A DNA stretch of 57,188 nt from IMG/VR virus record IMGVR_UViG_2657245570_000014; one strand, given 5' to 3'. Made by a program: the position numbers and the translations under genes. The notes under the pieces are model-generated. The model worked only from the letters and a program-made list of their open reading frames with translations. It was not told the DNA's origin and ran no database searches. The stretch's first letter is position 1; each line of letters starts with the position of its first letter. Shown piece after piece: positions 18,945 through 37,813 of the stretch. This DNA comes from a virus. Taxonomy: Duplodnaviria > Heunggongvirae > Uroviricota > Caudoviricetes.

Positions 18945-18958
18945 GCTCTCTCCTTAAA

Positions 18959-20747: not shown

Positions 20748-20749
20748 TG

Positions 20750-21571: not shown

Positions 21572-23048
21572 GCAGACGTCCCCGGATATTTGCCACAAAG
21601 AGAATACGGGCCAGCCGTTCCTGCAGATCGTCCGTGTTCATCTGAGGGTAGAGCTCCGCCAGTTCGCCCAGCAGCTCAGTCGGGTTAACCCCGTTTTCGA
21701 CCCGCTTAAACAGAGGTGCCAGGACGGGTTCCAGCGTGCCATTTAACACACCTCCGTTCATCAGAATGTCCAGCGCGTCGTCAAGCTGCTGCTGAGCCTG
21801 AATATCGGCATCAATCGCCTCGGCAAATGACAGCGGCAGCATGTTATTCTGGCGTTCCGACGGTGATGTCTCGTCAATATCGCCGTCCTGCAGTTGGTAC
21901 TCACGCTTAAAGTATTGCGGGGTCAGACGCAGACCCGCCCGGGTGAGTTTTTCGTCGCGGGTGGCGCGGGTGTCATCAATGGTCTCCTGTTCCCACATGG
22001 CCCAGACCGGACACGGCACATCGCCGAAGTTCAGGGTGACCACCGTTCTGATAACCTGATTCACTGCTGCCTGAATGATGTCCGCATCCGCATCGCGGAT
22101 ATCAGCCGTTACCTCCAGCCCGGCCTGTGCAGAGGCCTTGTTACTGTTCGCTTCCGTGGTCTGATTCTGACCAAGTAATGCAATGGAGATCTCACTGCGT
22201 GACAGTGTGATCAGCTCGCGGAATACCTCGCTGCTGTCCGCCTTACCATCCGCGGCTTTGAGTTCGATGCTGCTGTCATCGGGGATGGTGGCCACCGCGT
22301 CCTCCACCATCTGCTCCATGGAGTCCAGCAGTTTTTCAATCTCTGCATCATTTGCACCCCTCGGGTGCTTACCGATCACCCACGGGGAGCCAAACTTTTC
22401 GGCAAAGCGGAGCCAGAATTTCATCCCGCCTTTCTTGAAGGCGACCGGCCAGAAGCACATGGACAGGTCCGGGAAACCGTAAGGATTGTCATACGAGGCA
22501 TCCTGTGCCGGCACCACGAATTTTGACGGTGACAGCAGCTCACCCTCCACACCCGCATCACGCGCCCGGAAGCGCAGGCAGTTGTCCGTATCAAACTGAA
22601 ACCACTCAGGCGGTTTGCCGACAATATCCGTCACTGCCCACGCCCTGACCGAACGGCCCCACATGATTTCACAGGGCTGATACCCGTAGAGCACGGCATC
22701 ACTCATCTCACCGATGATGCGGGACAGATCCAGATCGTCGAGCATGTCGCGGATGAAACGGAAGACCCGGGCAGAAGCGTGACCGCGCTCCAGTCCACGC
22801 TCCAGTGATTTGAGCGCTGCTTTACGTCTGCGGATACAGCCCCCAACCAGCGGGTCGGTGCGCAGTTCGCGGTAGATACGGATATCCCGTCCCTGAGCCT
22901 TGAGAATGGGATCAGGATTGGGCAGATACATGCCCAGTCCGTAAAAGTCGATCGCGCGGCTGCGGGAGGCAATCTGCGCGGTCAGTGATTTCTGAGGCTC
23001 AGAAAAAGCAACAAATTCATCGGGTGAAACCCAGATACCCCTCGCCAT
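21552..23048 (-). CDS. Portal protein (Mu H-like)
   Basis: 498 aa directly downstream of the large terminase gene. Confidence 0.85.
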   Translation of the reverse strand: MARGIWVSPDEFVAFSEPQKSLTAQIASRSRAIDFYGLGMYLPNPDPILKAQGRDIRIYRELRTDPLVGGCIRRRKAALKSLERGLERGHASARVFRFIRDMLDDLDLSRIIGEMSDAVLYGYQPCEIMWGRSVRAWAVTDIVGKPPEWFQFDTDNCLRFRARDAGVEGELLSPSKFVVPAQDASYDNPYGFPDLSMCFWPVAFKKGGMKFWLRFAEKFGSPWVIGKHPRGANDAEIEKLLDSMEQMVEDAVATIPDDSSIELKAADGKADSSEVFRELITLSRSEISIALLGQNQTTEANSNKASAQAGLEVTADIRDADADIIQAAVNQVIRTVVTLNFGDVPCPVWAMWEQETIDDTRATRDEKLTRAGLRLTPQYFKREYQLQDGDIDETSPSERQNNMLPLSFAEAIDADIQAQQQLDDALDILMNGGVLNGTLEPVLAPLFKRVENGVNPTELLGELAELYPQMNTDDLQERLARILFVANIRGRLHERDNG

Positions 23049-24643
23049 CAGAATCCCTCCAGCATACGGGCCGCCTGACGACGACGGCGTGAGCTTGCCT
23101 TCACCGGCCCTTTGTTAATTTCACGGCTGGCGAAATACGCCAGCGCCAGTGCGATGGCTGAATCCCCGTGGCGTTTACCACCGTCAGCCTTTGCTTTTGA
23201 GCGTTGCTCCGGTACGCGGGGGACACCGTTCACCACCTGAACGGCCCGCAGGTCATCCAGTGTGTCTTCATCCTTTGGTAAGTCCACCAGGTTACCGTCT
23301 TCCAGTGCAGCTTTGACCGGAGGCATATGCTCCCGGTACCAGCCTTCGGTTGGCATCACCTGCTGAACCCGGCCGGAGCCGTAGCGCTGCATGGCGTATT
23401 CAGCCAGATAGGCACCATTACCACGGGCATCAAACGCTGCACCCAGCAGACCGGGCAGGCCATCCATCAGATACCAGGTGATTTGCTCCTGCTGTCTGAA
23501 CGGCACGTTACGCAGCTCCAGTACGAATGGCACGCGTCGTACCAGGTTCTTCTCCTGCAGCAGGGGATAGTCCACCGACAAATCACCGCTACGGCCAAAG
23601 TCGCGCCCCAGGAAAGAGCGGGCATCAGTGGGGAGTGCCTCCAGCAAGGGTTTCAGATACTCATCAAGCCAGTCCTGCGTCTCGCGGAAGCGAACCTCAT
23701 CAGACAGCAGTTCATAACCTTCCTTGCAGGTCAGACGCAATACCGGCGTATCAGCGGACATGCGGGACTCTATCAGGGCACGGGACAGCCAGGCACCGCC
23801 ACCGTTGGCCGGAATACAGTCAAGCTCTTCGGATGCGCCGGCACCGTAGAATTTGTACACCGATGCCATCCAGGCCTGCTCGGATGCCTCCGACCATTCC
23901 TTCCCGGTGCGCAGACAGACGCGCCGGAACAGCCCCTCAGATACGGCTTCCCGGAAAGTGATGCGATGTATGCTGCCTCCCTGACGTCCGGCACGGATAT
24001 CCCCGATAAGCGTATTGAACGGATTGTCGTCACCGTCATGGGTGGAGATAACGCGTACCTTTCCCCCCCAGATAAGCATCGCCAGCGCCGCTTTCAGCAG
24101 TTCGTCCAGTTGCTCATGGAACGCCGCTTCGTCGATAACAATAATACCCTGACGGCCACGCAGGTTAGACGGGCGGCTGGAGAGCGCAACAATACGAAAG
24201 CCGGAGTCAGGAAATTTGATGGTGTAAGTCCTGATGTGTTTGTCGTCGTCGTCCTCTTCCCAGAATCCTTCTTCAATTTCACTGGCCGCATAGTTGAATG
24301 CCCGTGCCCACATCGCACACGCCTGAATGTATTCGACGGTCATGTCCTGGTTATAAGCGATGTAATACACATTCATCCCGCCTGCTGGCGCAGAAGAGGC
24401 GGCGGTCAGTACGTTATCGGATGCCTCAGCCCATGTAATACCGGTACGACGGCTCTTTTCTATCACCTTAAGCGGAGAGGTGTCTGCCACCCAGCGCTGC
24501 TGGTAAGGCAACAGAACGGGAGGAGCATCCAGCGCCGAGGTATCAGGCAAAACGGGAGCAAGGTTATTCCTCCCGTCCATGGGACTCATCCCTTCGGGGC
24601 CACCGCCAGCGGCGTTTAAAATCACTCCGGATGATTTTGTCAT
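23048..24643 (-). CDS. Terminase large subunit
   Basis: 531 aa; terminase-portal order. Confidence 0.85.
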   Translation of the reverse strand: MTKSSGVILNAAGGGPEGMSPMDGRNNLAPVLPDTSALDAPPVLLPYQQRWVADTSPLKVIEKSRRTGITWAEASDNVLTAASSAPAGGMNVYYIAYNQDMTVEYIQACAMWARAFNYAASEIEEGFWEEDDDDKHIRTYTIKFPDSGFRIVALSSRPSNLRGRQGIIVIDEAAFHEQLDELLKAALAMLIWGGKVRVISTHDGDDNPFNTLIGDIRAGRQGGSIHRITFREAVSEGLFRRVCLRTGKEWSEASEQAWMASVYKFYGAGASEELDCIPANGGGAWLSRALIESRMSADTPVLRLTCKEGYELLSDEVRFRETQDWLDEYLKPLLEALPTDARSFLGRDFGRSGDLSVDYPLLQEKNLVRRVPFVLELRNVPFRQQEQITWYLMDGLPGLLGAAFDARGNGAYLAEYAMQRYGSGRVQQVMPTEGWYREHMPPVKAALEDGNLVDLPKDEDTLDDLRAVQVVNGVPRVPEQRSKAKADGGKRHGDSAIALALAYFASREINKGPVKASSRRRRQAARMLEGF

Positions 24644-25185
24644 GTGGCAATCCCCAGAATCTCGCGACGAAGCGCCTGTACTGCGTCGCTTGACAGTCCC
24701 CCCTTACGGGCAATTTTCTCGGCGTTGCTGGCTGCCTGCTGCGCTCTGGCCCGTACTTCAGACTGGAACTTTTTGAGGTTGACGGACGCGCGGGACAGCG
24801 TAGCCACATTCTTCGCCACCTTCGACAGCAGGGCCACGCGTTCTTTAGGATCGACTTCGCCTTCTTCCGCCTCCTGCAACTGGACAATACTCTCGAACAG
24901 CTCGGTCTGAATAAGGGCTATCACAGCCTCCGAACGCGCATCCTGATCGTCTGCTGCGCCTTCGGTCAGCATGCGGGCCGCTTCTGTTGCCGCACGGATA
25001 GCACCATAGCGGCGCTCAATCTTCTGTCCATAGCGATGGATAGCGGATTTGCTGATGACGTACCCCCGCTCACGCAGCAGGGACTCCAGCTCGTTATACC
25101 CGCTGAAGCCGGATTCAGTCAGCGCCCGTTCAAGCCAGCGGCGCACATCTTCCGGCAGCTTTTCTATTGTGCTGCGTCTGGCCAT
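24640..25185 (-). CDS. Terminase small subunit (Mu gp27-like)
   Basis: 181 aa; ATG with GGAG Shine-Dalgarno; overlaps the large terminase start. Confidence 0.75.
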   Translation of the reverse strand: MARRSTIEKLPEDVRRWLERALTESGFSGYNELESLLRERGYVISKSAIHRYGQKIERRYGAIRAATEAARMLTEGAADDQDARSEAVIALIQTELFESIVQLQEAEEGEVDPKERVALLSKVAKNVATLSRASVNLKKFQSEVRARAQQAASNAEKIARKGGLSSDAVQALRREILGIAT

Positions 25186-25496
25186 TATTCACTCCAGTAC
25201 TTTTCCGGGCGGGCAATACCCGGACCACATTCCACGGTGTATTCCACCAGGTCTACGCCGAGGCGGGTCAGGTCAGCAAACCAGTCGCCAGAAGGTTTTT
25301 TCTCCAGATCAACCATTTTACGGTCAGCCAGATAATCCAGTTCGCGGCGCAGTTCCAGCGGTGTGGTGTCCGGGTAGATGGCACGGGACACATCCAGCAG
25401 CAGCGTCTCGCTGGCGGTGTAAGGGCGGGTCTTGTTCAGGGCAACCAGCAGACTCCAGCGCAGGGATTCGCGGCGTACCCGGGTAATATCGACCAT
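25185..25496 (-). CDS. Hypothetical protein (Mu gp26 position)
   Basis: 103 aa; stop overlaps the small terminase ATG (TAATG). Confidence 0.55.
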   Translation of the reverse strand: MVDITRVRRESLRWSLLVALNKTRPYTASETLLLDVSRAIYPDTTPLELRRELDYLADRKMVDLEKKPSGDWFADLTRLGVDLVEYTVECGPGIARPEKYWSE

Positions 25497-25822
25497 TATT
25501 GACCTCCGGTATTGCGGTACTGCTGTACCACTTCCAGTTTGTTATAAAGCGCGTCCAGTTTGGCCTCAATGACTGTCTGGCCACGGATATAATCCTCTCG
25601 ACGGACATAATTCAGCGGTAAATCCGCTTTAAATCGCATAAATTCTTTTTCCAGCTCGCCCCAGTTGGAGGCGGATTGTTGCAGGGCCTGTTCAAGGGAG
25701 GCGAATCGTGCCGCCTGGCGTTCTTCTGTTTTACTGAACAACCATTTGGCGAGCCCTCCCACAAACCCCATGAAGGTGAGCAGAAAACTCACCACCGTCC
25801 AGAATTCAACCTGCAGTGTCAT
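25496..25822 (-). CDS. Small membrane protein with coiled-coil (Mu gp25 position)
   Basis: 108 aa; N-terminal transmembrane segment FWTVVSFLLTFMGFVGGLAKWLF. Confidence 0.55.
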   Translation of the reverse strand: MTLQVEFWTVVSFLLTFMGFVGGLAKWLFSKTEERQAARFASLEQALQQSASNWGELEKEFMRFKADLPLNYVRREDYIRGQTVIEAKLDALYNKLEVVQQYRNTGGQ

Positions 25823-26469
25823 TTCTGTAATCCTTCCCGTTCATCCAGTAACGCGTTTATCTGGTTCCGCCAGCGACGACATTGTCCTGCGTTGTCGATG
25901 ATGTTGGCGAGAACGTCACGCTGGGAGACACCCGAATCGCGTAACCGGGTGTCAGTGGTTTCAGGTTGCCCGGTCGCTGTGCCAGAGCGGGTGCCAGCGG
26001 CGGCAACTGAGTCTGAATGACCGGTGTCGACGGATGCGTTGTCATATCCGAGTGCGGCGTTGTACTGGCGCACGAAACCGCGAGTAAACACGCACTCAAT
26101 GGGATGGCTCTTACCTTTTTCATCAATCCAGCGCTGTGTGACATCGTTAATTTGCCCCTGTAGTTGTTTATTCCGGCTCTCCAGTTGAGCAATCTGCTCA
26201 AGATAACCGGCTTCAGCCCGCTGCCCGGCGGCCACCTGCTCCTGATACCGTCTGGCCCAGGCCCGCAGCGCAGCATTCTCAAGCGTTGCCTGCTCCGTTT
26301 TGTACGCGTCAAATGCTGACTGCAACTGACTGAGCGCGGTATCACCGTCACGCTTTGCAGAGTCATGACCACTTCTGTATCCCATGGCATACAGGCCGAC
26401 CAGAAAGGCATTGATAAGAATGGCCAGCAGAATGCCGCGCCACGGCAGCTTTTTAACCAGATGCCACAC
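25819..26469 (-). CDS. i-spanin (Rz-like)
   Basis: N-terminal transmembrane segment followed by a long coiled-coil periplasmic domain; GTG start with GGGGAGG Shine-Dalgarno overlapping the endolysin 3-prime end. Confidence 0.7.
   Translation of the reverse strand: MWHLVKKLPWRGILLAILINAFLVGLYAMGYRSGHDSAKRDGDTALSQLQSAFDAYKTEQATLENAALRAWARRYQEQVAAGQRAEAGYLEQIAQLESRNKQLQGQINDVTQRWIDEKGKSHPIECVFTRGFVRQYNAALGYDNASVDTGHSDSVAAAGTRSGTATGQPETTDTRLRDSGVSQRDVLANIIDNAGQCRRWRNQINALLDEREGLQK
25857..26123 (-). CDS. o-spanin (Rz1-like), nested in the +1 frame of the i-spanin gene
   Basis: MKKVRAIPLSACLLAVSC lipoprotein-like signal followed by a Pro-rich segment (LPPLAPALAQRPGNLKPLTPG); fully embedded in the Rz-like gene. 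Confidence 0.65.
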   Translation of the reverse strand: MKKVRAIPLSACLLAVSCASTTPHSDMTTHPSTPVIQTQLPPLAPALAQRPGNLKPLTPGYAIRVSPSVTFSPTSSTTQDNVVAGGTR

Positions 26470-27193
26470 AACTGCTGCCTCCCCATGTGAGATATCGCGG
26501 TGCCAGTTCGCGCAGGATGCGCTGCGGATAATGGCGGTTCTCCCGCCAGCTGGCCGCATTGCGTCCGGCATTCACCGTGGCGACATGTCCGAACCAGCGG
26601 GTGCTGTCCAGACCTTTCTGTGATGCAAGCCGCCTGTCCCGTTGTACCCAGCCCAGACCACCGTTATAGCCCGACAGTGTCATGGCCATACGCTCGCAGT
26701 CACTGGCGGCGCTGACACGCTGCCACAGCCAGCGGTCATAGCTGACCAGCGCCCGGATAGCCCATGCCGGATTAAACGGCTCACGACTGCTCAGCATCGG
26801 TATCAACTGGCTTATCCAGTCGGCAGTGGCAGGCATGAACTGCGCCAGTCCCTGAGCGCCAGCCGGCGAGATCGCATCAGGTCGCCAGCCGCTTTCCTGA
26901 TGCAGTTGCGCGGCGAAATCGGCCACCGGCGCAGACAGTCCCCATTCAAGCCGGGCATTACGGATCACATCATCGCGATACTGCAGCGCAGCCTGCGGAG
27001 GTTGTGCTGCGCATGCCTGGCTAAAAAAGCCGCCACACCAGAGCAACATTGCGACAAAGAATACCCATGCCATATGAACCAGAAAGGTCCCGGCGCGGAC
27101 TGACAGGCGTTCGGTTCTGATGAAGACCCGAAAGGCTTCGAAAGCCAGTTTCAGGGACATGCATACAATCCAGGTGATCTGCGGCCAGTTCAT
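26453..27193 (-). CDS. Endolysin, lytic transglycosylase (SLT) type with a hydrophobic N-terminal signal-anchor
   Basis: SLT-like region (EWGLSAPVADFAAQLHQESGW...); N-terminal hydrophobic stretch MAWVFFVAMLLWCGGFF; ATG 3 nt after the holin stop. Confidence 0.8.
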   Translation of the reverse strand: MNWPQITWIVCMSLKLAFEAFRVFIRTERLSVRAGTFLVHMAWVFFVAMLLWCGGFFSQACAAQPPQAALQYRDDVIRNARLEWGLSAPVADFAAQLHQESGWRPDAISPAGAQGLAQFMPATADWISQLIPMLSSREPFNPAWAIRALVSYDRWLWQRVSAASDCERMAMTLSGYNGGLGWVQRDRRLASQKGLDSTRWFGHVATVNAGRNAASWRENRHYPQRILRELAPRYLTWGGSSCVASG

Positions 27194-27195
27194 GA

Positions 27196-27546
27196 TTAAA
27201 GCCCCATCGCAACAGCCAGGCAGACCGCTGCAACAATCAGTGCACGGCGGATTAACGCAGCAGAAAACACCAGGTGAAGGCCGGTCTGTACCGGGAAACG
27301 CCCTTCAGCCATCAGCCTGTCGTCATGTTTCAGGTACTGACCGGGACGGGCTTTGGGGAAGAGCGAACGGTCAAGCCAGTAACCCAGCACTGCTGCCAGC
27401 GTGATGAGTGCCAGCTTGTAGATCACAACAGGCAGCTGCTGTGGTGAGACCAGAGCGATGGTGCCCAGCAACAGCACTGAGGTCAGCAGCCAGCCGCTGA
27501 GGCGAGGTTTTTTAACAGGGGGAATGAATTTTTTCAGGTTTTTCAT
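27196..27546 (-). CDS. Putative holin (three predicted transmembrane segments)
   Basis: 117 aa; AAGGAG Shine-Dalgarno 6 nt upstream of ATG; first gene of the late operon. Confidence 0.65.
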   Translation of the reverse strand: MKNLKKFIPPVKKPRLSGWLLTSVLLLGTIALVSPQQLPVVIYKLALITLAAVLGYWLDRSLFPKARPGQYLKHDDRLMAEGRFPVQTGLHLVFSAALIRRALIVAAVCLAVAMGL

Positions 27547-27676
27547 GTGTGTCTCCTTATCTGGTGGAGACAGCATCACAAATACAGGGCGCGAAGGATT
27601 TTAAAGCGCGTTAAGAGAGCCGGGGATACGGGATGTGCAGGATAAACGATGAATTATTCACAGAGGAGAATACGAT

Positions 27677-28153
27677 ATGACGCACACACTGAATCCGGTC
27701 ATCACTGTCACTGTGTCCGGTCCTGTGGGCAGCGGTAAAAGTTACGTACTGGCGCGGATAGAAGAGATGGTGAAACAGGAACTCGGAAACAGCGTCATTG
27801 TCGATGCTGCTGACGTGGAGAATGAGCGCCGTATGAATGGCGAAGATCTGACGACCTGGCAGAAGCCACGGGGTGGCACAGTGATCAGGCTGGAGGAATA
27901 CACGGGACAGGGCCTGTTGTCATACGGCGAGGAGCGTATCTGTCGGACGAATGAGCTGCTGGATGTTATATGCCCCACGGGCCGGCAACCCTGGATACTG
28001 CCCGATGCACTGCATGCCACCATTGCGGCACTGATGACAGTTTACGATCAGGAGCTGCTCATGAAGGAGTTACGTAAACTCACCGGTCAGCCAACAGAAT
28101 GTTGTTCGTCTCCGAAGTACGGCAAACAGGAAAACGCCCCGGATAATCCTTAA
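27677..28153 (+). CDS. Small P-loop protein (Walker A GPVGSGKS near the N-terminus; kinase-like), unknown function
   Basis: 158 aa; GAGGAG Shine-Dalgarno; opposite strand to the late operon. Confidence 0.7.
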   Translation: MTHTLNPVITVTVSGPVGSGKSYVLARIEEMVKQELGNSVIVDAADVENERRMNGEDLTTWQKPRGGTVIRLEEYTGQGLLSYGEERICRTNELLDVICPTGRQPWILPDALHATIAALMTVYDQELLMKELRKLTGQPTECCSSPKYGKQENAPDNP

Positions 28154-28159
28154 GATACC

Positions 28160-28192
28160 TCCTGAACAGAAACAGCCCTGAAGGGCTGCACT
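28160..28192. terminator. Possible bidirectional hairpin terminator between convergent genes
   Basis: CAGCCC tgaa GGGCTG stem-loop flanked by an A-run on one side and a T-rich stretch on the other. Confidence 0.35.
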
Positions 28193-28781
28193 AAAAAAAG
28201 AAGTGTATTATTGCCCAAACAGCTATAACGATGATTCCCAGCCCAAGAGCCGATTCTAACTTATCTTTGGCAGTCATTTTTACTGTTGTAGCGGGCGCAG
28301 GTAAGTCTTGCTGCTGTGGATTTTCTGTTAGTTGTTTACGAGAAGAAACATCGCCCCTGTTAGTTTGCTTCATGTTGATTACAGATGCGTTATGGGCATT
28401 ATCAGCAGCAATTGACTGAAGTTTTACAAAAGTTTTTGAATCTGTTTTAGCCAGAAGTAACCTATTTCCCGTAAACATTGCCTTAAAAGTGATAGTTTTT
28501 TTCGTCTTGTCCGCCGCACCAAGCAAACCTCCAATGACCAACCCTGCACCACCAAAGATTAATCCACCAAGCAAACCTGCGCCTGCCGCCTTACCTATAC
28601 GGCTTTCCTCTTCACTATCCGCAAGTTCAATCGATAAAAGCTCTTCTTTCAGATTTAATACAATATTTTCAGGAAAGCCTTGTTTTGGTTTTTTGGCAAA
28701 CACGATGGTACCGAACCCCATGCTTGCCCACCCTTTAGGAAAACTTCCTGCGATAACCTGAATCCCTGCCATGTTCATCAC
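28191..28781 (-). CDS. Membrane protein with a glycine-zipper segment and C-terminal transmembrane helix, unknown function
   Basis: GAGLLGGLIFGGAGLVIGGLLGAA motif; C-terminal LGLGIIVIAVWAIIHFFF. Confidence 0.6.
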   Translation of the reverse strand: MMNMAGIQVIAGSFPKGWASMGFGTIVFAKKPKQGFPENIVLNLKEELLSIELADSEEESRIGKAAGAGLLGGLIFGGAGLVIGGLLGAADKTKKTITFKAMFTGNRLLLAKTDSKTFVKLQSIAADNAHNASVINMKQTNRGDVSSRKQLTENPQQQDLPAPATTVKMTAKDKLESALGLGIIVIAVWAIIHFFF

Positions 28782-28862
28782 CTTTTACATTAAAATTTCA
28801 GAACGCAGCATGATGCCGCCTTTGTCTTTTTTCTGATCCCATGGTAATTCAGCTGTTATTTT

Positions 28863-29849
28863 CTATTTAAGAATAAAACGGTATTTACTGTCAGGAGTGC
28901 TTTGCTGATCAAGTAGCAGTGAACGACATGGAGCAGTCAAAACCCGAGCATAACTACCATCAGGGCTTATGTTAATGTAACAAACCTTGCCCTTAACACT
29001 ATAATTTTCGGGGACGGATGCCTTTGCTGATACAGTAAATTTAAGGGTATGCCAGCCCGTTTTTTGCTTGTAGCTTGAAACCGAATGGAAATCATCTGAG
29101 TACTTATTTAACCCTGGAAACATGCTGCGCAGTGCGGGGATGGAATCTTCTATTATTTTATCGTTGGTTTTAATGTTAAAAACGCTGGTTTCAGTAGAAG
29201 CTACTGCTTTGGCATTTCCCCATTTACCAGCGAACACAATCATTCCCACGAAAAATATTGCTACAAGAACTAACACTCCCCCCAACACTACTACATGAGG
29301 CTTCCGGCTTCTGGTTGGTACAGTTGCGACTGATTTTGCACCGCTTTCCGATGGAGGTGATAGAGTTTTACTCTCATCACGAATATTCAGCAGATCATCA
29401 AAATAACCAAACACAGCCTGCAACTGCTCTTTGTCTAGGCCTTTAAGATGGGTTGTACCGAAATGCTTCAGACAGTATCTGTCACGGTCAAGACGATACC
29501 CAGGGTCAGTAAGCGCCATTATTTTGCTGACCAGAAGATTACAGTCCTTCATATTCTGGATCTGTTGTGCATATCTCTGAAGGATCTCAACCGCACCATG
29601 ATAATCAGCCGCAGTCATTTCATTAACTGTTTTGGTATTAAGTTTCGTGTGGATCGTCATCCATAGCTCGCGCTTACTTTCCCCCAGATCAACCAATTCA
29701 TCCATCAATCTGTGTAAATCGCGTTTTTGCAGCAACGAAATTGGTTGCTGGGCCGAAGGAAGTATGTCAGCAGAATAGTTATGAATGGTAACATCACCGC
29801 TGACAACGTTACCCACATCCCCGTTAACTGTTTGCTTCTCTTTACTCAT
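28863..29849 (-). CDS. Single-pass membrane protein, unknown function, apparently co-transcribed with the repressor
   Basis: 328 aa; start overlaps the repressor stop; central transmembrane segment HVVVLGGVLVLVAIFFVGMIVFA; N-terminal motif NGDVGNVVSGDVTIHN. Confidence 0.65.
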   Translation of the reverse strand: MSKEKQTVNGDVGNVVSGDVTIHNYSADILPSAQQPISLLQKRDLHRLMDELVDLGESKRELWMTIHTKLNTKTVNEMTAADYHGAVEILQRYAQQIQNMKDCNLLVSKIMALTDPGYRLDRDRYCLKHFGTTHLKGLDKEQLQAVFGYFDDLLNIRDESKTLSPPSESGAKSVATVPTRSRKPHVVVLGGVLVLVAIFFVGMIVFAGKWGNAKAVASTETSVFNIKTNDKIIEDSIPALRSMFPGLNKYSDDFHSVSSYKQKTGWHTLKFTVSAKASVPENYSVKGKVCYINISPDGSYARVLTAPCRSLLLDQQSTPDSKYRFILK

Positions 29850-30307
29850 CTTCTCTTGGTATTTTTGTTCATTATTCCACCTGTTCCTATGGTTACGTTA
29901 CCTTTGATAACATTCCCCAGAACATCTCCATGAATAACCTGTTCCGCCCGTTCTCTGGAGGAGCCAGTAGTCAAGGCCGACAAAACTGAACCTTTGACCT
30001 GTAATGGTGCCTGCCGGTAGTGCTGCAGTAACTCCATTTCATCACGTGATAAAGTTATACCTGATGACTCCCCGGTAAGAATGAACTGTACATTGGCCCC
30101 AATTCTTGCAAAGGCTGCAAGTAACTCACCTCCGGGAACAGCAACCCCTCGTTCATATTTCCCCCACATTTCTCTTGAAACGCCACAAAGGGCTGCTACT
30201 TCAGCCTGCTTGAGTGATAACCGCGAACGCTCAGCTTTGAACCGCGACGCGCAAAGAGAATCAAAATTCACATAAACCTCATTGACAATGAGAACAATAG
30301 TTCTCAT
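29846..30307 (-). CDS. Putative prophage repressor (XRE-family helix-turn-helix)
   Basis: HTH region LKQAEVAALCGVSREMWGKYERG; divergent from the ner-like gene; true start may be an internal GTG with GAGG Shine-Dalgarno. Confidence 0.7.
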   Translation of the reverse strand: MRTIVLIVNEVYVNFDSLCASRFKAERSRLSLKQAEVAALCGVSREMWGKYERGVAVPGGELLAAFARIGANVQFILTGESSGITLSRDEMELLQHYRQAPLQVKGSVLSALTTGSSRERAEQVIHGDVLGNVIKGNVTIGTGGIMNKNTKRR

Positions 30308-30357
30308 AATCTATCACATATAAAACAAACATCATTGCATCAACAAAGGAGACAACA
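30308..30357. promoter_or_regulatory. Divergent early promoter/operator region between the repressor and ner-like genes
   Basis: Short AT-rich intergenic region between divergent regulator genes. Confidence 0.5.
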
Positions 30358-30546
30358 ATGACTTCCGAACAAGTTAAAAATCTCTTCCGTCAGCGTGGTA
30401 TCACGTTTACCCGCTGGGCCGAAGAACACGGCTACAGCCGCAATGAGGTCTATCGTGTTCTCAATGGACAGACCAAAGCTCGTTACGGCAAAGCCCATGA
30501 AATTGCCGTAAAACTGGGATTAAAACCCACGTCAAATGCGGCATAA
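30358..30546 (+). CDS. Ner/Cro-like small DNA-binding protein
   Basis: 62 aa; AAGGAGA Shine-Dalgarno; first gene of the early operon, opposite the repressor. Confidence 0.7.
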   Translation: MTSEQVKNLFRQRGITFTRWAEEHGYSRNEVYRVLNGQTKARYGKAHEIAVKLGLKPTSNAA

Positions 30547-30598
30547 ATTTTCCACATATGCAACAGGTTATCACATATTGCAAAAATGGAAATGTGAC

Positions 30599-30907
30599 AT
30601 GAGTAAAGTAAATATTTCCAGTTCTGGGACCCGCATCCTACGTGTACTCAAAGCTCTACGCGGTCATGCTCTGAACGGTGTTTCTAACGGTGAACTGGCA
30701 TCAGCCCTGGGGGAGTCCCCGGCGAATATCAATCGAGCACTTAATACCCTTATTGAAGAGGGACTGGCCATGAAATTAGAGAACGGACGTTTCGCACCGG
30801 GAATCCAGTTACTACAGATCGCCATGGCTCACAGTCACGAGATGGCGCGTGCACAGGATCGTATTAACGAAATCAACCAACGAGTTATTTCAGGTAGTCG
30901 TTTGTAA
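30599..30907 (+). CDS. Putative winged-helix DNA-binding protein
   Basis: Region RILRVLKALRGHALNGVSNGELASALGESPANINRALNTLIEEGLA; start uncertain (ORF opens at 30536). Confidence 0.5.
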   Translation: MSKVNISSSGTRILRVLKALRGHALNGVSNGELASALGESPANINRALNTLIEEGLAMKLENGRFAPGIQLLQIAMAHSHEMARAQDRINEINQRVISGSRL

Positions 30908-30917
30908 GGAGTAATCA

Positions 30918-31832
30918 ATGGGACGCACCAAATCACCCGTTAACACTGAACTGAATGTTGAGGTTCCGCTGTCAGATAACATCAATGTCAATTTGAACGC
31001 TATGACACAGCATCGCATGGAAATTATGCAGCAGTTTGGTGATGGACTGCCTTATGAACGTGATCGCATTGTTCACGAAGCACGTTTTTATATGGCGCAG
31101 AGTGCTGAATCTATGCTGGAAGCGGGTAAGCGGCTGATCATCTTAAAAGAAAATGAGCCACACGGTGATTTTACAAACATTTTAGAAAATGAACTCGGAC
31201 TTGCACCACAAGTTGCTCGCCGCATGATGCAAGCCAGTATGAAGTTTTTGGGAGAAGGTGATGAGCCAACAAAACGCTCAACGTTGAGCGTTTTGGGGAA
31301 AGCCAAACTGTACGACCTGATGGTTCTGGATAATGAAGAACTTGATGAATTGGCCGACGGCGGCACAGTTGCCGGCCTGACGCTTGACGACGTTGATCGC
31401 ATGTCAGTACGTGAATTGCGTCAGGCCCTGCGCGAAGCGCGCGAAACCAACGCAGCACAACAGCGCGTACTCGCCGACAAAAATGAAAAAATAGATTCAC
31501 TCTCCACCAGACTGGAGAAGAAATCCCGTATTCAGCCGCCTGAGCCTGATGAGGAGGTTAAGAAGCTGCGGGCGGAAGTAACAGCATTAGCGGTTGAGGC
31601 GGAATCTGCTATCGCCGTCCGACTGTCCAGCGCTTTTGAGACGCTGTGCGCATATTGTGCTGAAAACATGATTGATACCCCCAGAGACTTCATGGCAGGC
31701 CTGGTCTGTCAACTGGAAAGCACAGCGCGTAGCCTGCGCTCCACATTTGACCTGCCGGACGAGCCAACAGGCAATGCAGCGCCTTCATGGCTGACTGAGC
31801 CGACGCCACAGATTAACGGGCTGGAGGCATAA
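30918..31832 (+). CDS. Conserved early-region coiled-coil protein, unknown function
   Basis: 304 aa; AAGGAG Shine-Dalgarno; immediately upstream of the transposase. Confidence 0.6.
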   Translation: MGRTKSPVNTELNVEVPLSDNINVNLNAMTQHRMEIMQQFGDGLPYERDRIVHEARFYMAQSAESMLEAGKRLIILKENEPHGDFTNILENELGLAPQVARRMMQASMKFLGEGDEPTKRSTLSVLGKAKLYDLMVLDNEELDELADGGTVAGLTLDDVDRMSVRELRQALREARETNAAQQRVLADKNEKIDSLSTRLEKKSRIQPPEPDEEVKKLRAEVTALAVEAESAIAVRLSSAFETLCAYCAENMIDTPRDFMAGLVCQLESTARSLRSTFDLPDEPTGNAAPSWLTEPTPQINGLEA

Positions 31833-31835
31833 CCA

Positions 31836-33605
31836 ATGAATGCTGCCCTGACTGAACGACTGGTTTATGTCGCCCGCGCGGCACGTGACGCGGGGCATGG
31901 TAAACGCGGTGCAATATACGACGCTGCCTGTGCTGAACTTGGCATGTCCCGCGCCACTCTGCTGCGCAGGCTGAAGGAGGTCTCTGTGACTGATAAACGC
32001 AAAAAACGCGCCGATGCCGGGCGCAGCGCCCTGACCCGCGACGAAGCCGCGCTGATATCTGCCACACTGCGTGAGGCCACCCGCAAGAACGGTAAGCGTC
32101 TCTATTCCATCGCAGATGCAGTGGAAACCCTGCGGGCTAACGGCTTTATCACCGCAGGCAGAACAGATGAAACCACCAGTGAGTTTTTCCCGTTGTCTGA
32201 AGATGCCATCAGCCGTGCTCTGCGTAACTATGGCCTGCACCCGGAACAACTGGATGCCCCTGCACCACATACCGAAGTGGCCAGTCTGCATCCCAATCAT
32301 GTCTGGCAGATTGACGCCTCACTCTGCACGCTTTACTACCTGAGCAATGGACATAAAGGGCTGCAGGTGATGGACAGCGCGAAGTTCTACAAGAACAAGC
32401 CCGCTAACCTTGCCCGTATCGCCAGTGACCGCGTGTGGAGTTACGAGATTACCGACCATGCCAGCGGCTGGATTTACGTTGAGTATGTGACGGGCGCGGA
32501 ATCAGGTGAGAACCTGTGTTCTGTGCTTATCAACGCCATGCAGGAGCGTGGCGGCGCAGACGTGCTGCACGGCGTGCCGAAAATACTCTATCTCGACCCC
32601 GGCTCGGCAAACACCGCGGGTATGACGAAAAACATGTGCCGCTCACTGGGCATCGACCTGATAGCGCACAAGCCGCATAACGCCCGCGCCACCGGACAGG
32701 TGGAAAAGGCGCGTGACATTATCGAACGCAAGCTGGAGCCGGGTCTGAAGTTCCGGCCGGTTCACAGTCTGGAAGAACTCAACGCGCTGGCCGCGAAATG
32801 GCGCAGCCACTTTAACGCCACGGCTGTTCACAGCCGCCACGGTAAAACCCGCACGGATATCTGGCTGAAGATTACTGCTGAGCAGCTGAAAAAAGCGCCT
32901 TCCGTTGAGGTATGTCGTGAACTGGCTGTGGCGGCACCAGAACTCCGCAAAGTCACGCCAAAACTTCGTGTCTCGTTCCGGGGCACTGAATTTGACGTAT
33001 CAACGGTACCGGGCGTACTGGTTGGTGAAAAACTGATGATTACCCGTAACCCATGGCGCAGCGATGTGGCACAGGTGGTTCTGACCGGTGAGGACGGCCA
33101 CGAGACGTTCTTCCTGGTCGAAGAGGTCAGAAAGAACGAGTTTGGCTTTGCTGAAGGCGCGGCGGTATTTGGCGAAAGTTACAAAGCCCTGCCGGAAACC
33201 CCGGCACAGATGGCGGCAAAAGAAACCGAAGCGCTGGTTACCGGTACAGACAACGCCGCAGATGCAGCCGCCGCACGCAAGGCGAAGGCGCTGCCGTTCG
33301 GCGGGCGGCTTGACCCGTATAAACATATCGACGACACCACACTTCCGGCCTATATGCCGAAGCGTGGTCAGGCCTCTGACGTACGCGGGCCGCGCACTGA
33401 ACAACGTCCCATGACTCATGTGGAGGCCGCGAAAGCCCTGCGCGATAAGTTCAGCGCCGACGGCCTTACCTGGACGCCGGAACATTACCGCCAGTTAACG
33501 GCACAGTACCCGGACGGCGTACCGGAAGCCGCACTGGATGAAGTCATGGCCACGCTGACCACACCGGCCCGCAGCAGTGTTATCAGCATTGTTAACGGCA
33601 ACTGA
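31836..33605 (+). CDS. DDE transposase (Mu A-like, integrase-core fold)
   Basis: 589 aa; candidate catalytic residues in HVWQIDASL, LYLDPGSANT and a later Glu; GGAGG Shine-Dalgarno. Confidence 0.85.
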   Translation: MNAALTERLVYVARAARDAGHGKRGAIYDAACAELGMSRATLLRRLKEVSVTDKRKKRADAGRSALTRDEAALISATLREATRKNGKRLYSIADAVETLRANGFITAGRTDETTSEFFPLSEDAISRALRNYGLHPEQLDAPAPHTEVASLHPNHVWQIDASLCTLYYLSNGHKGLQVMDSAKFYKNKPANLARIASDRVWSYEITDHASGWIYVEYVTGAESGENLCSVLINAMQERGGADVLHGVPKILYLDPGSANTAGMTKNMCRSLGIDLIAHKPHNARATGQVEKARDIIERKLEPGLKFRPVHSLEELNALAAKWRSHFNATAVHSRHGKTRTDIWLKITAEQLKKAPSVEVCRELAVAAPELRKVTPKLRVSFRGTEFDVSTVPGVLVGEKLMITRNPWRSDVAQVVLTGEDGHETFFLVEEVRKNEFGFAEGAAVFGESYKALPETPAQMAAKETEALVTGTDNAADAAAARKAKALPFGGRLDPYKHIDDTTLPAYMPKRGQASDVRGPRTEQRPMTHVEAAKALRDKFSADGLTWTPEHYRQLTAQYPDGVPEAALDEVMATLTTPARSSVISIVNGN

Positions 33606-33615
33606 GGAGGGAAAC

Positions 33616-34782
33616 ATGCTGGTACTGAAGCAGCAACTGAAAGAGGCCCGTATTCCACAGGCGGTGGTGGCGAGAGCTGTCGATGTTTCTGAGGCCACGC
33701 TGGCCCAGATTGTGAATCATAACGCGTGGCCCCGCACCAGCCCCGGAGAAGTGCGCCGGCGTCTTGCGTCCTGGCTGGAAAGTCAGGGGATTGATACAAC
33801 GAAGAGTTTTGATGCTGTACAGGGCGCGGCCACGCCCCGTACAGCGGGTACCACAGATAAAACGAGCCTCAGTGAGGAAGAGAATATGTTACTCAAAAAA
33901 CAGGTGTTATTTCCAGCAACCAAAAAAGCGTTTGGTCTTTTCCGTGACCCGTTCGCCGACGAAGCCATGCAGGGTTCTGATGATGTGTTCACCACCCCGG
34001 ACATTCGCTACGTGCGTGAGGCGCTGTACCAGACAGCCCGTCATGGTGGGTTTATGGCCGTCATCGGTGAGTCCGGTGCGGGTAAATCCACGCTGCGCCG
34101 CGACCTGACTGAACGTATCAACCGCGAGAATGCGCCGGTAATTGTTATCGAGCCATACATCATCGCTATGGAAGACAACGATGTGAAAGGGAAAACCCTG
34201 AAGGCAGCAGCTATTGCCGAAGCCATTATCAGTACCATCGCACCACTGGAAAGCATCAGACGCAGTCAGGACGCCCGTTTTCGCCAGTTGCATCGCGTCC
34301 TGAAAGACAGCAGCCAGGCGGGGTTCAGCCACGTTCTGGTGATTGAGGAGGCCCACAGTCTGCCCATTCCGACACTGAAACACCTCAAACGCTTTTTTGA
34401 GCTGGAGTCCGGTTTCAAAAAACTGCTGTCCATCGTGCTGATTGGCCAGCCGGAACTGGCGACAAAACTGTCTGAACGCAATATGGAAGTCCGTGAAGTC
34501 GTTCAGCGCTGTGAGGTGGTCGAACTTCTGCCTCTGGACAATAACCTTGAAGAATTTCTGACGTTCAAACTGCAACGGGCCGGTAAACAGCTGACGGACA
34601 TTATGGACGCCGGTGCAGTGGATGCCATACGTGCCCGCCTGAGCAATCCGGGAAGTCACCGTAAAAATATGGTCAGCCTGCTGTATCCGCTGGCCGTCAG
34701 TAACCTGGTAATAGCCGCCATGAATCTGGCCGCTGAAATCGGGGTTCCACAGGTCAACGCTGACGTTGTCAAAGGGGTTTAA
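33616..34782 (+). CDS. Transposition ATPase (Mu B-like, AAA+)
   Basis: Walker A GESGAGKST and Walker B-like VLVIEEAH; directly downstream of the transposase with GAGGAGGG Shine-Dalgarno. Confidence 0.85.
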   Translation: MLVLKQQLKEARIPQAVVARAVDVSEATLAQIVNHNAWPRTSPGEVRRRLASWLESQGIDTTKSFDAVQGAATPRTAGTTDKTSLSEEENMLLKKQVLFPATKKAFGLFRDPFADEAMQGSDDVFTTPDIRYVREALYQTARHGGFMAVIGESGAGKSTLRRDLTERINRENAPVIVIEPYIIAMEDNDVKGKTLKAAAIAEAIISTIAPLESIRRSQDARFRQLHRVLKDSSQAGFSHVLVIEEAHSLPIPTLKHLKRFFELESGFKKLLSIVLIGQPELATKLSERNMEVREVVQRCEVVELLPLDNNLEEFLTFKLQRAGKQLTDIMDAGAVDAIRARLSNPGSHRKNMVSLLYPLAVSNLVIAAMNLAAEIGVPQVNADVVKGV

Positions 34783-34784
34783 TA

Positions 34785-35054
34785 ATGAAATCCACCACAG
34801 GTATCAACCAGCAAATCAGCAAAGTGCAGTCAGCCATTATGGCGCTTAAGGCGACGAACACGGATGTACAAAGCATCACCATCAGGGGTAACAAACCTGT
34901 CATCCGCGTTTCCCGGAGTGCGCATTGCATGCGCATGCTTGAGCAGGGAAAGGCCTGTTATCTGTATACCGGACATGACCACAGGGGATATTTCCGTCAG
35001 GGCGTTTTCGAACTGCACGGCTGTCGCGTCGTGTGGCCGGAATCTTTGTGGTAA
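34785..35054 (+). CDS. Hypothetical early protein
   Basis: 89-aa ORF tightly packed after the B-like gene. Confidence 0.5.
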   Translation: MKSTTGINQQISKVQSAIMALKATNTDVQSITIRGNKPVIRVSRSAHCMRMLEQGKACYLYTGHDHRGYFRQGVFELHGCRVVWPESLW

Positions 35055-35081
35055 TCAGCACAACTGGAGAAATCATAAAAA

Positions 35082-35612: not shown

Positions 35613-35709
35613 ACACACCACGTTAATTATTTAATAAAAACATTTTCTTTTTTATTCCGACGTCAGCGCCGCGGGCTTCTGCACGCCGGAAACAGAGGAG
35701 AATTAAATC

Positions 35710-35904
35710 ATGATATTTAAATGTATTCAGTGCGAGAGGGATATAACAGCCCTGCGTTTTCACAGCGCCATCGCCGTGATGTCCGGTAAATACCACATCC
35801 CTGCGGTACGCGTCACCCTGGTCTGCCCGTACTGCAGCCAGCATTTTTCGGCAGACGTGCCCGTCATGGAATTCTCCCGCCCTGACAGGGAGGACTCGCA
35901 ATGA
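35710..35904 (+). CDS. Hypothetical small Cys-containing protein (two CxxC motifs)
   Basis: 64 aa with CIQC and CPYC. Confidence 0.5.
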   Translation: MIFKCIQCERDITALRFHSAIAVMSGKYHIPAVRVTLVCPYCSQHFSADVPVMEFSRPDREDSQ

Positions 35905-36173: not shown

Positions 36174-36182
36174 GGGCGCGGC

Positions 36183-36479: not shown

Positions 36480-36493
36480 CCGGGAGGCATTCA

Positions 36494-37812: not shown

Positions 37813-37813
37813 T

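Follow-up and report, generated by a model that had tools for sequence, protein, structure and literature searches.

A divergent early/late layout around a central immunity hub in a BcepMu-type transposable prophage

Are early and late operons that run outward from a central repressor region in a Mu-like element a novelty, the trace of a rearrangement or the normal arrangement of a known phage group? The question is raised by the 57,188-nucleotide stretch of viral DNA analysed here (the window; IMG/VR record IMGVR_UViG_2657245570_000014), in which an earlier note had described a 2.8 kb hub (27547-30357) dividing a leftward late arm from a rightward early arm. The coordinates proved exact. All long ORFs from 1635 to 27546 lie on the minus strand and all those from 30358 to 38624 on the plus strand; the late arm extends from the holin ATG (27546) to the pin stop codon (1635), and the early arm from the ATG of the ner-like gene (30358) to the mor stop codon (38624). 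The features are collected in Table 1. We consider it very probable that positions 1557-38786 constitute an intact BcepMu-type transposable prophage, present as a single copy, and that the divergent layout is the ancestral standard of the BcepMu/B3 lineage.

Table 1. Features of the element in the window; functions of promoters, operator and hairpins are predictions.
Feature	Position	Strand	Details
Target-site duplication, left copy	1551..1556	.	AATAAG, 6 bp; hexamer recurs at 38787-38792
Transposable prophage, BcepMu type, complete	1557..38786	.	37,230 bp; TG...CA termini
Pin-side terminus	1557..1600	+	TG and two GCGATAAATG repeats (1568-1577, 1591-1600), putative transposase-binding sites
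pin/gin-type serine DNA invertase	1635..2207	-	Last late-arm gene; 76% identical to Mu Gin
Predicted invertible tail-fibre cassette region	2271..4407	.	Two alternative C-terminal cassettes (2279-2782, 2793-3266, plus strand)
Late arm	3273..27546	-	In transcription order: holin, SLT endolysin, Rz, TerS, TerL, portal, F, G, protease, capsid, P2-like sheath/tube/tape measure/baseplate, tail fibre
Predicted late promoter 4	7576..7619	-	Upstream of gpW/baseplate genes; dyad CTTAAACGCCTTTAAT (7619-7604); -10 AATACT (7581-7576)
Predicted late promoter 3	14188..14231	-	Upstream of tail assembly/tape measure genes; dyad CTTAATCTCCTTTAAT (14231-14216); -10 CATACT (14193-14188)
Predicted late promoter 2	20105..20148	-	Upstream of protease/scaffold (Mu I analogue); dyad TCTAAAGCAGATTAAA (20148-20133); -10 CAAACT (20110-20105)
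Hairpin and U-tract, G-I gap	20201..20246	-	Fold z = -2.4
Holin	27196-27546	-	phrog_1528, E 5.5e-55; 52% identical to BcepMu gp21
Predicted late promoter 1 (Plys analogue)	27572..27615	-	Upstream of holin; dyad CTTAACGCGCTTTAAA (27615-27600); -10 GATGCT (27577-27572), TGT before it
Cargo gene 1, 158 aa P-loop protein	27677..28153	+	C-terminally truncated copy of 242 aa gene
Terminator-like hairpin	28172..28189	-	GCAGCCCTTCAGGGCTGT and T-rich tail; right after cargo gene 2 stop, before late promoter
Cargo gene 2, membrane protein, ~193-196 aa	28191..28781	-	phrog_12025; glycine-zipper stretch, C-terminal hydrophobic helix
Cargo gene 3, 328 aa single-pass membrane protein	28863..29849	-	phrog_10002; start overlaps repressor stop (ATGA)
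Immunity repressor, XRE HTH	29846..30307	-	Pfam HTH_31/HTH_3; 38.5% identical to BcepMu gp17
Predicted early promoter Pe	30278..30310	+	TTGACA-17-CATAAT (30282-30310)
Predicted operator palindrome	30288-30307		ATGAGAAC-N4-GTTCTCAT, within Pe spacer
Early arm	30358..38624	+	ner analogue, wHTH, DUF3102, transposase, B analogue, gam, small ORFs, gemA, mor
ner analogue	30358-30546	+	BcepMu gp16 family, TIGR04111, E 2.8e-27
wHTH regulator	30599-30907	+	
DUF3102 gene	30918-31832	+	
rve transposase, Tn552-like	31836-33605	+	Pfam rve E 9.8e-9; 68% identical to BcepMu gp9
ExeA/AAA B analogue	33616-34782	+	AAA_22 E 3.8e-20; 59% identical to BcepMu gp8
gam	35082-35612	+	
gemA	37814-38263	+	
mor	38235-38624	+	Pfam Mor, E 1.3e-43
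Mor-side terminus	38741..38786	-	...CA end with GAGATAAATG (38766-38775) and GAGATATTTATG (38741-38752) repeats
Target-site duplication, right copy	38787..38792	.	AATAAG, 6 bp

Boundaries of the element and origin of its layout

Each terminus was said to sit beside the end of an operon, and this is the case: the pin stop codon is 78 bp from the left terminus (1557) and the mor stop codon 162 bp from the right terminus (38786). The flanks of the element rejoin as contiguous lambdoid DNA with an overlap of exactly 6 bp (PP925829: 20577-22132 + 22127-22738), and the host site is the nin region (ninE region) of a lambdoid prophage. In E. coli AR_0015, a second copy with identical termini lies between ybjC and grxA, bracketed by the duplication CCTTCA. 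Its hub is 100% identical to that of the element, the identity spanning the 5 kb hub query, and the PGAP annotation of this prophage agrees with our late-arm gene calls. At both insertions examined to the base the duplication is 6 bp long, each time a different hexamer, compared with 5 bp for Mu. The insertion sites of related E. coli prophages, PhiKM and Klebsiella phage KP12 clone 2 (KP12_2) differ from that of the element, and the other relatives in E. coli occupy widely scattered chromosomal positions. Relatives were found in 636 of 5,426 complete E. coli genomes (~12%); 98 have the hub of the element, with at least 80% of the hub query covered in one collinear piece. In this search the hub was always flanked by both arms, on one and the same strand of the match, and Mu-type collinear order was found in none of the relatives inspected. 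Since a strand switch is deterministic, chance does not enter, and the choice was between artefact and true arrangement. The layout is genuine and not an artefact because a target-site duplication brackets the element and independent copies exist in other genomes.

A recent inversion of a Mu-type collinear ancestor within an E. coli lineage would make the layout novel. Descent from Mu might be assumed from the ten proteins common to the element and Mu, with identities of 76% for Gin, 62% for Gam, 49% for TerL, 48% for F, 36% for GemA and 30% for Mor. However, the same arrangement is present in phages of Burkholderia (BcepMu, phiE255), Pseudomonas (B3) and Klebsiella (KP12_2), and the layout is therefore older than the E. 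coli members. Nor is the inverted module that of Mu: its repressor, ner analogue, transposase and B analogue lack BLAST similarity to Mu but share 36-73% identity with their B3 counterparts and 34-68% with those in BcepMu. Moreover, the layout tracks the Tn552-like early module whatever the tail, in the myovirus BcepMu as in the siphovirus B3. We regard a recent inversion as highly improbable. As little credence is given to two back-to-back elements, one a remnant of P2/Mu-like late genes and the other a distinct transposon-like early module. The genome is indeed mosaic, with P2-like tail genes and a Tn552-like transposase, but it has one inverted pair of TG...CA termini with matching repeats, and one target-site duplication encloses both arms. 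The sole late activator gene (mor) is in the early arm while its predicted sites are in the late arm, and both arms also occur in PhiKM, whose database record is that of a phage. An assembly artefact or a rearranged defective remnant, signs of which the earlier note had proposed to look for, can practically be dismissed: the distinct composition of the hub (45% versus 53-56% GC) and one truncated gene look superficially like a scar, but a perfect 6 bp duplication surrounds the whole 37.2 kb with flanks that rejoin exactly, the layout recurs at the different AR_0015 locus and the hub is collinear in 98 genomes, the core genes are all intact ORFs that follow the order of BcepMu, and the truncated gene is accounted for by exchange of hub cargo.

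The hub as an exchangeable locus

With a GC content of 45.1%, compared with 55.8% in the late arm and 53.4% in the early arm, the hub holds the XRE-type repressor and three cargo genes, which bears out its description as the site of the repressor and accessory genes. Cargo genes 2 and 3 are located downstream of the repressor on the same strand, and cargo gene 1 is on the opposite strand. The true start of the repressor, judged from the sequence, is probably the GTG at 30271, which has GAGG before it; the N-terminus of the A33 repressor allele aligns to codon 14 of the element's repressor. The A33 allele and that in the window differ mainly in the HTH half. Three immunity types have three different palindromes at one position in Pe, followed by a conserved downstream leader. 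A simple scan predicted no promoter for the repressor. The BcepMu repressor is reported to contain an S24 peptidase domain (PMC8541194), whereas Pfam found none in the element's repressor.

Cargo gene 1 shares 92% identity, over 157 aa, with the 242 aa holin-adjacent protein of the commonest hub type, and its match to phrog_3787 spans profile positions 1-157 of 242. Its truncation is attributed to cargo exchange within the hub, not to rearrangement of the arms. In PhiKM and the commonest E. coli hub type, another repressor allele is accompanied by a Dam methylase and the 242 aa P-loop protein. Cargo gene 2 had no match in Pfam, NCBIfam or PADLOC. The N-terminal domain of the cargo gene 3 product is Flk-like (NF007987 Flk, E 2.9e-12, well under the family cut-off), and this gene was always paired with the element's repressor type in our hub comparison. 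The hub is an exchangeable immunity-plus-cargo locus.

Predicted regulation and the central palindrome

A search for a Mor/C-type motif upstream of the holin, as suggested earlier, yielded predicted late promoter 1. Mor/C sites consist of a 16 bp dyad with 5 bp inverted repeats and a GC-rich 6 bp spacer, centred at -43.5, with a -10 element and no -35 (PMC4390567, PMC2582627). Four late sites have this architecture at the sequence level, with weak -10 hexamers (3-4/6 matches). The pattern, which was derived from those four sites and for which only the BcepMu scan is independent, has exactly four sites in 57 kb against 0.04 expected, each of them in a late intergenic gap and on the late strand. 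When BcepMu was scanned with a PWM built from the four sites, the gap syntenic to that of promoter 4 ranked 1st of 73,458 positions, that of promoter 2 ranked 3rd/4th and the holin-upstream site 8th; the fourth gap (upstream of gp41) gave no score. The PWM found nothing in B3. The site of promoter 3 is conserved in KP12_2. Queries with Mu Mor and Mu C both match only 38235-38624, showing one Mor/C-family protein in the element, and this single activator probably acts in trans on the four predicted late promoters. The layout had been taken to imply a late activator working from the far end of the genome. The mor gene is indeed distal, but its position is mechanistically irrelevant because Mor is a diffusible protein, and mor of Mu is also at the distal end of its early operon.

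In the regulation that we propose, the central hub would be the immunity region, with the repressor and the two membrane-protein cargo genes transcribed leftward as one unit that would end at the terminator-like hairpin, short of the late genes. The repressor, bound to the allele-specific palindrome in the Pe spacer, would keep the early operon off. Upon derepression, the early operon would be read outward through the ner analogue, wHTH regulator, DUF3102 gene, transposase and B analogue, then gam and gemA, with mor last; no terminator was detected after mor. Mor, the sole Mor/C-family protein, would diffuse and switch on four sigma-70 promoters that lack a -35, one per intergenic gap in the late arm and each with a YYTAA-N6-TTAAW dyad of 16 bp centred at about -43; the first of them lies 20-70 bp upstream of the holin start. 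Transcription of the late arm would then proceed outward as far as the tail-fibre genes and the invertase. From the sequence, we infer the promoter, operator and terminator functions and the expression of cargo genes in lysogens. Such a two-tier cascade (early, then late) appears to replace the three tiers of Mu.

The hairpin in the G-I gap lies 29-74 bp away from the exact midpoint (20172) of the element. It is probably an intrinsic terminator and may possibly also be an analogue of the central gyrase site. Its core TTTATAAAGGCTTTAC is identical in BcepMu, the G-I gap of B3 contains a TTTATAAA palindrome, and the gyrase site of Mu is annotated in the G-I gap. The gap is at 49.7-50.3% of the element, 50.7-51.3% of BcepMu and 51.2-51.7% of B3, and the Mu gyrase site at 48.6-49.2% of its genome. 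The combined proposal, a BcepMu-type two-tier cascade acting through YYTAA-N6-TTAAW dyads with the conserved central palindrome as a gyrase-site analogue, is speculative, and we doubt it more than we favour it. If it is true, transposable phages of ~37 kb would in general require a central gyrase site, one that persists when the transposase family is replaced and when the early module is inverted, since an in-place inversion leaves the centre unchanged. For regulation in this very common but little-studied group of E. coli prophages, three features offer cheap, testable handles: the Mor sites predicted here, the pairing of operator and repressor alleles, and the central palindrome.

Comparison with BcepMu, B3, KS10 and Mu

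BcepMu is said to have been described by Summer et al. in 2004. The gene order and orientation of BcepMu (NC_005882) and phiE255, of the genus Bcepmuvirus, match the element end to end. In BcepMu, mor, gemA ... B analogue, transposase, DUF3102, wHTH and ner analogue are followed by a hub of repressor, membrane protein and cargo, and then by the late arm of holin, SLT, Rz, TerS ... P2-like tail and fibre. Thirty-six proteins are collinear over both arms (genes 1-16, 17-52), and 28 consecutive late-arm proteins match BcepMu 11555-33077 with their order kept. Identities are 68% for TnpA, 59% for the B analogue, 76% for the sheath, 63% for TerL and 54% for mor. The TG...CA termini are homologous, each aligned with its corresponding end: the pin-side terminus with the fibre-side end of BcepMu (TGAAGCGCGGCGCGATATTTC...GCGCGATAAATTC) and the mor-side terminus with its mor-side end (TGAAGAGAGGTGAGATATTTCC...). 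Both phages have a single Mor/C activator at the genome end, and the late-promoter dyad is conserved at three syntenic gaps. Like BcepMu-like phages, the element has two divergent clusters with lysogeny control at their interface, TG...CA ends with terminal repeats, varied insertion sites with a short target duplication, a Tn552/IS1604-type rve (DDE) transposase followed by an ExeA-type AAA+ protein, and a late cluster of holin, SLT endolysin and Rz/Rz1, then a Mu-like head and a P2-like tail. A further trait of that group is variable host DNA at the two ends of virion DNA, from replicative transposition and headful packaging; the element itself is seen here as a prophage.

The two have unrelated hub cargo (gp18 and the 328 aa protein show no similarity) and differ in the semi-essential early genes between gam and gemA. 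Unlike BcepMu, the E. coli element also has a Gin/Pin invertase, with NCBIfam recombinase matches and the PGAP name 'recombinase family protein', and a predicted multi-cassette invertible fibre segment, with inverted repeats at 2271-2544 / 4134-4407 (274 nt, 90%) and 2785-3013 / 4179-4407 (229 nt, 92%). The ICTV genus criterion is ~70% nucleotide similarity; similarity to BcepMu is ~20% (blastn aligns 29.8% of the element at 67.7% identity), short of that required for Bcepmuvirus in the strict sense. Judged by these sequence comparisons, membership with BcepMu is at the level of the group, below the ICTV genus threshold. Escherichia phage PhiKM (PQ738613), which GenBank taxonomy files under Bcepmuvirus, is ~97-98% identical over 87% of the element and represents the same phage type, as do Phi06_2974 B, KP12_2 and the related E. 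coli prophages; KP12_2 is ~85% identical over 74%. Layout and the four late-promoter sites are identical to those of the element in PhiKM, KP12_2 and related prophages.

The earlier note had mentioned a similar organisation in some Mu-like phages of other hosts and suggested a synteny comparison. BcepMu, phiE255, B3, KP12_2 and PhiKM have exactly that layout, and Mu is collinear. Publications have documented the divergent arrangement in BcepMu and B3 since 2004: in BcepMu the bottom strand carries genes 1-13 and the top strand genes 17-52, and lysogeny control lies where the two clusters meet (PMC2771037), and the early operon of B3 is inverted relative to Mu (PMC5977238). The layout is normal for the BcepMu/B3 group, and the observation is therefore ordinary. 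Its value as a discovery is low, with the layout so long known and near-identical phage and prophage sequences public. Its practical use lies in annotation: the element's label should be BcepMu-type instead of Mu-type, its exact ends are 1557 and 38786, and its hub should be treated as the exchangeable locus described above.

Pseudomonas phage B3 (Beetrevirus) shares the divergent layout and a homologous immunity/early module (ner analogue 73%, wHTH 57%, DUF3102 51%, TnpA 57%, B analogue 55%), and its lysis cassette and head genes are homologous to those of the element. However, its Mor is only 28% identical, it has no invertase, and no tail protein of the element matches the siphovirus B3, whereas early, lysis and head proteins do. 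Burkholderia phage KS10, also transposable, has a central repressor/ner-analogue hub and divergent transcription in a third arrangement, with lysis, terminase and portal genes leftward and early genes, mor, then capsid and tail genes rightward; its transposase is different and its ends are not TG...CA (PMC2628397).

The comparison with Mu bears out the difference in arrangement that the earlier note had seen. Mu is collinear, with c leftmost and the rest pointing rightward, and gam, gemA, mor, TerL, portal, F, G, gpJ, the fibre gene and gin in order on one strand; homologues in the early and late arms of the element are on opposite strands, and its immunity/early module is inverted relative to Mu. 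In addition to this collinear layout, other marks of Muvirus are absent: none of Mu A, B, c and Ner matched the window by tblastn at better than E = 0.2, and Mu has two activators (Mor, then C) and three tiers, whereas the element has one Mor/C homologue. Thus the term 'Mu-like' holds only loosely, as the endolysin, too, has no detectable similarity to Mu Lys, and the label 'ner' holds by position, as a Ner analogue, but not by similarity to Mu Ner. The tail genes of Mu are its own, and those of the element are P2-like. In common, the two have TG...CA ends, varied insertion with short target-site duplications, a late activator of the Mor/C family, late promoters without a -35, which in the element are predicted, and a G-I intergenic gap at the genome centre.

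Divergent arms of a complete element

The ORF map confirmed that the late and early operons run in opposite directions, as the earlier note had claimed. An unbroken series of minus-strand genes, the late arm, extends from 27546 to 1635, and an unbroken series of plus-strand genes, the early arm, extends from 30358 to 38624. The hub between them (27547-30357) holds the repressor and cargo genes. The landmarks proposed from sequence alone (holin, pin, mor and the position of ner) were borne out by phrog, Mu Gin identity, Pfam and TIGR04111, respectively. The protein at 30358 has no detectable similarity to Mu Ner, and is a predicted Ner analogue by position only. Rfam revealed no RNA families within the element and no tRNAs were found.

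Features of the transposable element and of the lambdoid prophage around it
Feature	Position	Strand	Region	Remarks
Q antiterminator	156-548		lambdoid, left flank	
rusA/ybcO-like genes, ninE			lambdoid, left flank	
Serine invertase (pin)	1635-2207 (ends 1635)	minus	late arm	76% identity to Mu Gin
Holin	starts 27546	minus	late arm	116 aa; phrog_1528, E 5.5e-55
Terminator-like hairpin	28172-28189		hub	
P-loop gene			hub	158 aa; sole gene oriented oppositely
Membrane protein			hub	about 196 aa
Membrane protein	28863-29849		hub	328 aa; start overlaps repressor stop
XRE-type repressor	29846-30307	minus	hub	
Ner analogue (by position)	starts 30358	plus	early arm	62 aa; BcepMu gp16 family, TIGR04111
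Mor-family activator	ends 38624	plus	early arm	Pfam Mor, E 1.3e-43
ninB	38804-39259		lambdoid, right flank	
Inverse autotransporter	39558-43466	minus	lambdoid, right flank	1,302 aa; intimin/invasin type; IAT_beta, E 1e-100
O/P-like genes			lambdoid, right flank	
Lambda cIII thermoregulator RNA (right flank)	50158-50216			Rfam RF01804, 88.5 bits

The layout had also been said to differ from that of Mu, and a direct comparison agreed. Mu has matches to only 10 proteins of the element (gam, gemA, mor, TerL, portal, F, G, gpJ, fibre and gin). All 10 lie on one strand in Mu, whereas in the window the three early-arm matches are on the strand opposite to the seven late-arm matches. No counterpart of MuA, MuB, c, Ner or Lys was detected in the element, which is not a Muvirus.

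Matches to lambdoid phages end at 1556 and restart at 38787, and the two flanking stretches align to 20577-22132 and 22127-22738 of phage IdasGreatGrand, which overlap by 6 bp. The element therefore spans 1557-38786 (37,230 bp), with TG at its start and CA at its end; AATAAG is present on both flanks (1551-1556 and 38787-38792). In E. coli strain AR_0015, a prophage that shares these termini and has a hub 100% identical to the present one lies between ybjC and grxA, with CCTTCA on both sides. The target-site duplication (TSD) is 6 bp in both of the insertions examined. These two independent insertions with different duplications show that the element is mobile and complete, and they rule out the assembly artefact or rearranged remnant that the earlier note had named as grounds for refutation. 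A lineage-specific inversion as the origin of the divergent layout, and two juxtaposed elements instead of one phage, were also considered and rejected.

The TSD of Mu is 5 bp. A TSD of 6 bp is more consistent with a transposase of the Tn552 type than with MuA; no published TSD lengths for B3/BcepMu-type phages were found in the literature searched. The two ends were searched for long inverted repeats, but share only short ones of the GATAAATG type. Each terminus is homologous to the corresponding end of BcepMu: TGATGCGCCGCGCGATAAATG on the pin side pairs with TGAAGCGCGGCGCGATATTTC on the BcepMu fibre side, and TGATTAGACTTGAGATAAATG on the mor side with TGAAGAGAGGTGAGATATTTC on the mor side of BcepMu.

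The element is inserted within a lambdoid prophage, with lambdoid sequence at 1-1556 and from 38787 to about 51000. The insertion falls in the PR operon between ninB and Q, at the 5' part of ninE or within it. As a probable result, Q is separated from delayed-early transcription and the lambdoid prophage is crippled. Between ninB and its P-like gene, this prophage carries the inverse autotransporter as a moron. The protein has five Big_1/Invasin_D3 repeats, and a 357 bp segment of its gene is duplicated in tandem (x 2; 41452-42159, 95% identical).

In the late arm, pin is accompanied by a predicted multi-cassette invertible tail-fibre region (2271-4407) with the inverted-repeat pairs 2271-2544/4134-4407 and 2785-3013/4179-4407. 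Inversion would swap alternative C-terminal cassettes (2279-2782 and 2793-3266) into the fibre gene (3887-5560). Both the tail-fibre gene (4574-5326; 168/336 bp period, 4.5/2.2 copies) and the tape-measure gene (11056-11851; 261 bp x 3, 97%) contain in-frame tandem repeats. The tape-measure gene of the near-identical AR_0015 prophage is annotated as two pseudogene fragments, suggesting that the region is unstable or hard to assemble.

Predicted late promoters, immunity switch and central hairpin

Each of the four late-arm intergenic gaps, including that upstream of the holin where a search for Mor/C-dependent motifs had been proposed, contains a YYTAA-N6-TTAAW dyad followed 22 nt on by a -10-like hexamer (GATGCT, CAAACT, CATACT and AATACT). 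In 57 kb, where 0.04 matches are expected, the combined pattern has exactly four, each on the late strand; as it was derived from those four sites, the count shows only its absence elsewhere in the 57 kb. Under the published Mor/C rule, two 5 bp inverted repeats on either side of a GC-rich hexanucleotide spacer form a 16 bp dyad centred at -43.5, and there is a recognisable -10 and no -35 (PMC4390567, PMC2582627). The architecture of the four predicted late promoters fits this rule. As an independent test, a PWM built from the four window sites was used to scan BcepMu. Among 73,458 positions, the syntenic gap upstream of gp49 (a BcepMu protein) ranked 1st, that of gp32 3rd/4th and that of the holin 8th; the gap upstream of gp41 gave no score. 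The PWM found nothing in B3 and did not pick out the late-promoter regions of Mu, which makes the motif specific to the BcepMu branch.

Both Mu Mor and Mu C match 38235-38624 and nothing else, so the element has one activator. In the two-tier cascade that we infer, Mor, the last product of the early operon, would act in trans on the four predicted late promoters. The suggestion that the late activator acts from the far end of the genome describes a position without mechanistic consequence. A simple scan found no terminator after mor.

A near-consensus rightward promoter is predicted at 30282-30310 (TTGACA-17-CATAAT), with a perfect palindrome, ATGAGAAC-N4-GTTCTCAT, in its spacer. Two other immunity types have different palindromes at the same position (ATGTGAT-N6-GTCACAT and TGCTCATAATTATGAGCA), and the leader downstream is conserved. 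The repressor allele A33 is 100% identical to that of the window over residues 81-153, diverged in the HTH half and 80% identical overall. This covariation supports the assignment of the palindrome as the operator in the predicted switch. The allele alignment and a GAGG-N5-GTG at 30271, inside the annotated repressor ORF, suggest that the annotated ATG at 30307 is too far upstream and over-extends the ORF into the predicted operator. No repressor promoter was found in a simple scan.

A hairpin with a U-tract (20201-20246, minus) is located in the gap between G and I, the latter an analogue of the Mu I protease/scaffold, 29-74 bp from the centre of the element (20172). BcepMu shares its core, TTTATAAAGGCTTTAC, without change (18739-18754), and the B3 G-I gap contains a TTTATAAA palindrome. 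The strong gyrase site of Mu, whose central position matters for replication, is annotated in the same gap. The simpler interpretation of the hairpin is a plain terminator, but it may instead, or also, act as a gyrase-site analogue.

Variation of the hub

The GC content of the hub is 45%, versus 56% in the late arm and 53% in the early arm. A 5 kb cross-hub query found matches in 636 of 5,426 complete E. coli genomes, 98 of which cover at least 80% of it as one collinear piece. In all five examples inspected, the holin and ner sides flank the hub in the same divergent orientation and the interior differs. Some variants keep the repressor-328 aa pair of the window but have other genes beside it, such as DUF2441; others combine a different repressor with a Dam methylase and a P-loop protein of 242 aa. 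The 158 aa gene in the window is a truncated copy of this P-loop gene (157/242 aa, 92% identical), which marks a recombination scar. With its varying interior between constant flanks, the hub is thus an exchangeable immunity-plus-cargo locus.

No credible defence system was recognised by PADLOC in the hub cargo. The 196 aa protein has no Pfam or NCBIfam match, and the sole such result for the 328 aa protein is a Flk-like N-terminal match below threshold. The repressor and the 328 aa gene are always paired in the hub variants seen. The repressor C-terminal tail HGDVLGNVIKGNVTIG resembles the N-terminus NGDVGNVVSGDVTIHN of this translationally coupled membrane protein.

Relation to BcepMu and other phages

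A tblastn search of 53 element proteins against BcepMu gave 36 matches in perfect order. Counterparts of the late-arm proteins, from holin to tail fibre, lie at BcepMu 11555-33077, and those of the early arm run from 9086 down to 368, with gemA and mor last; the repressor corresponds to gp17 and the ner analogue to gp16. Identities are 68% for the transposase, 59% for the B analogue, 76% for the sheath and 63% for TerL. In the synteny comparison that the earlier note had proposed, BcepMu and B3, as described in secondary papers and GenBank records, share the divergent layout and Mu does not. The same layout is found in phiE255, whose record is permuted, in Klebsiella KP12_2, and in E. coli phage PhiKM, which GenBank lists as a Bcepmuvirus and which has about 97-98% identity to the element. 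The element has all testable defining features of the BcepMu group; its nucleotide similarity to BcepMu, about 20%, is below the strict genus level. It is a member of the BcepMu group and works like it.

B3 and BcepMu have a common early/immunity module despite their different tails (siphovirus in B3, P2-like myovirus in BcepMu), so the divergent layout goes with the Tn552-like early module. Published descriptions place BcepMu genes 1-13 on the bottom strand, genes 17-52 on the top strand and the control of lysogeny at their junction (PMC2771037), and give B3 an early operon inverted with respect to Mu (PMC5977238). KS10 has yet another arrangement around a central hub (PMC2628397). The divergent arrangement is textbook for the BcepMu/B3 lineage. 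The finding of the earlier note is correct, yet the architecture was already known, and the prophage type is common and already sequenced. The element differs from BcepMu in its hub cargo and semi-essential early genes. It also has a Gin/Pin invertase and a predicted invertible multi-cassette fibre region, both of which BcepMu lacks (PMC2771037).
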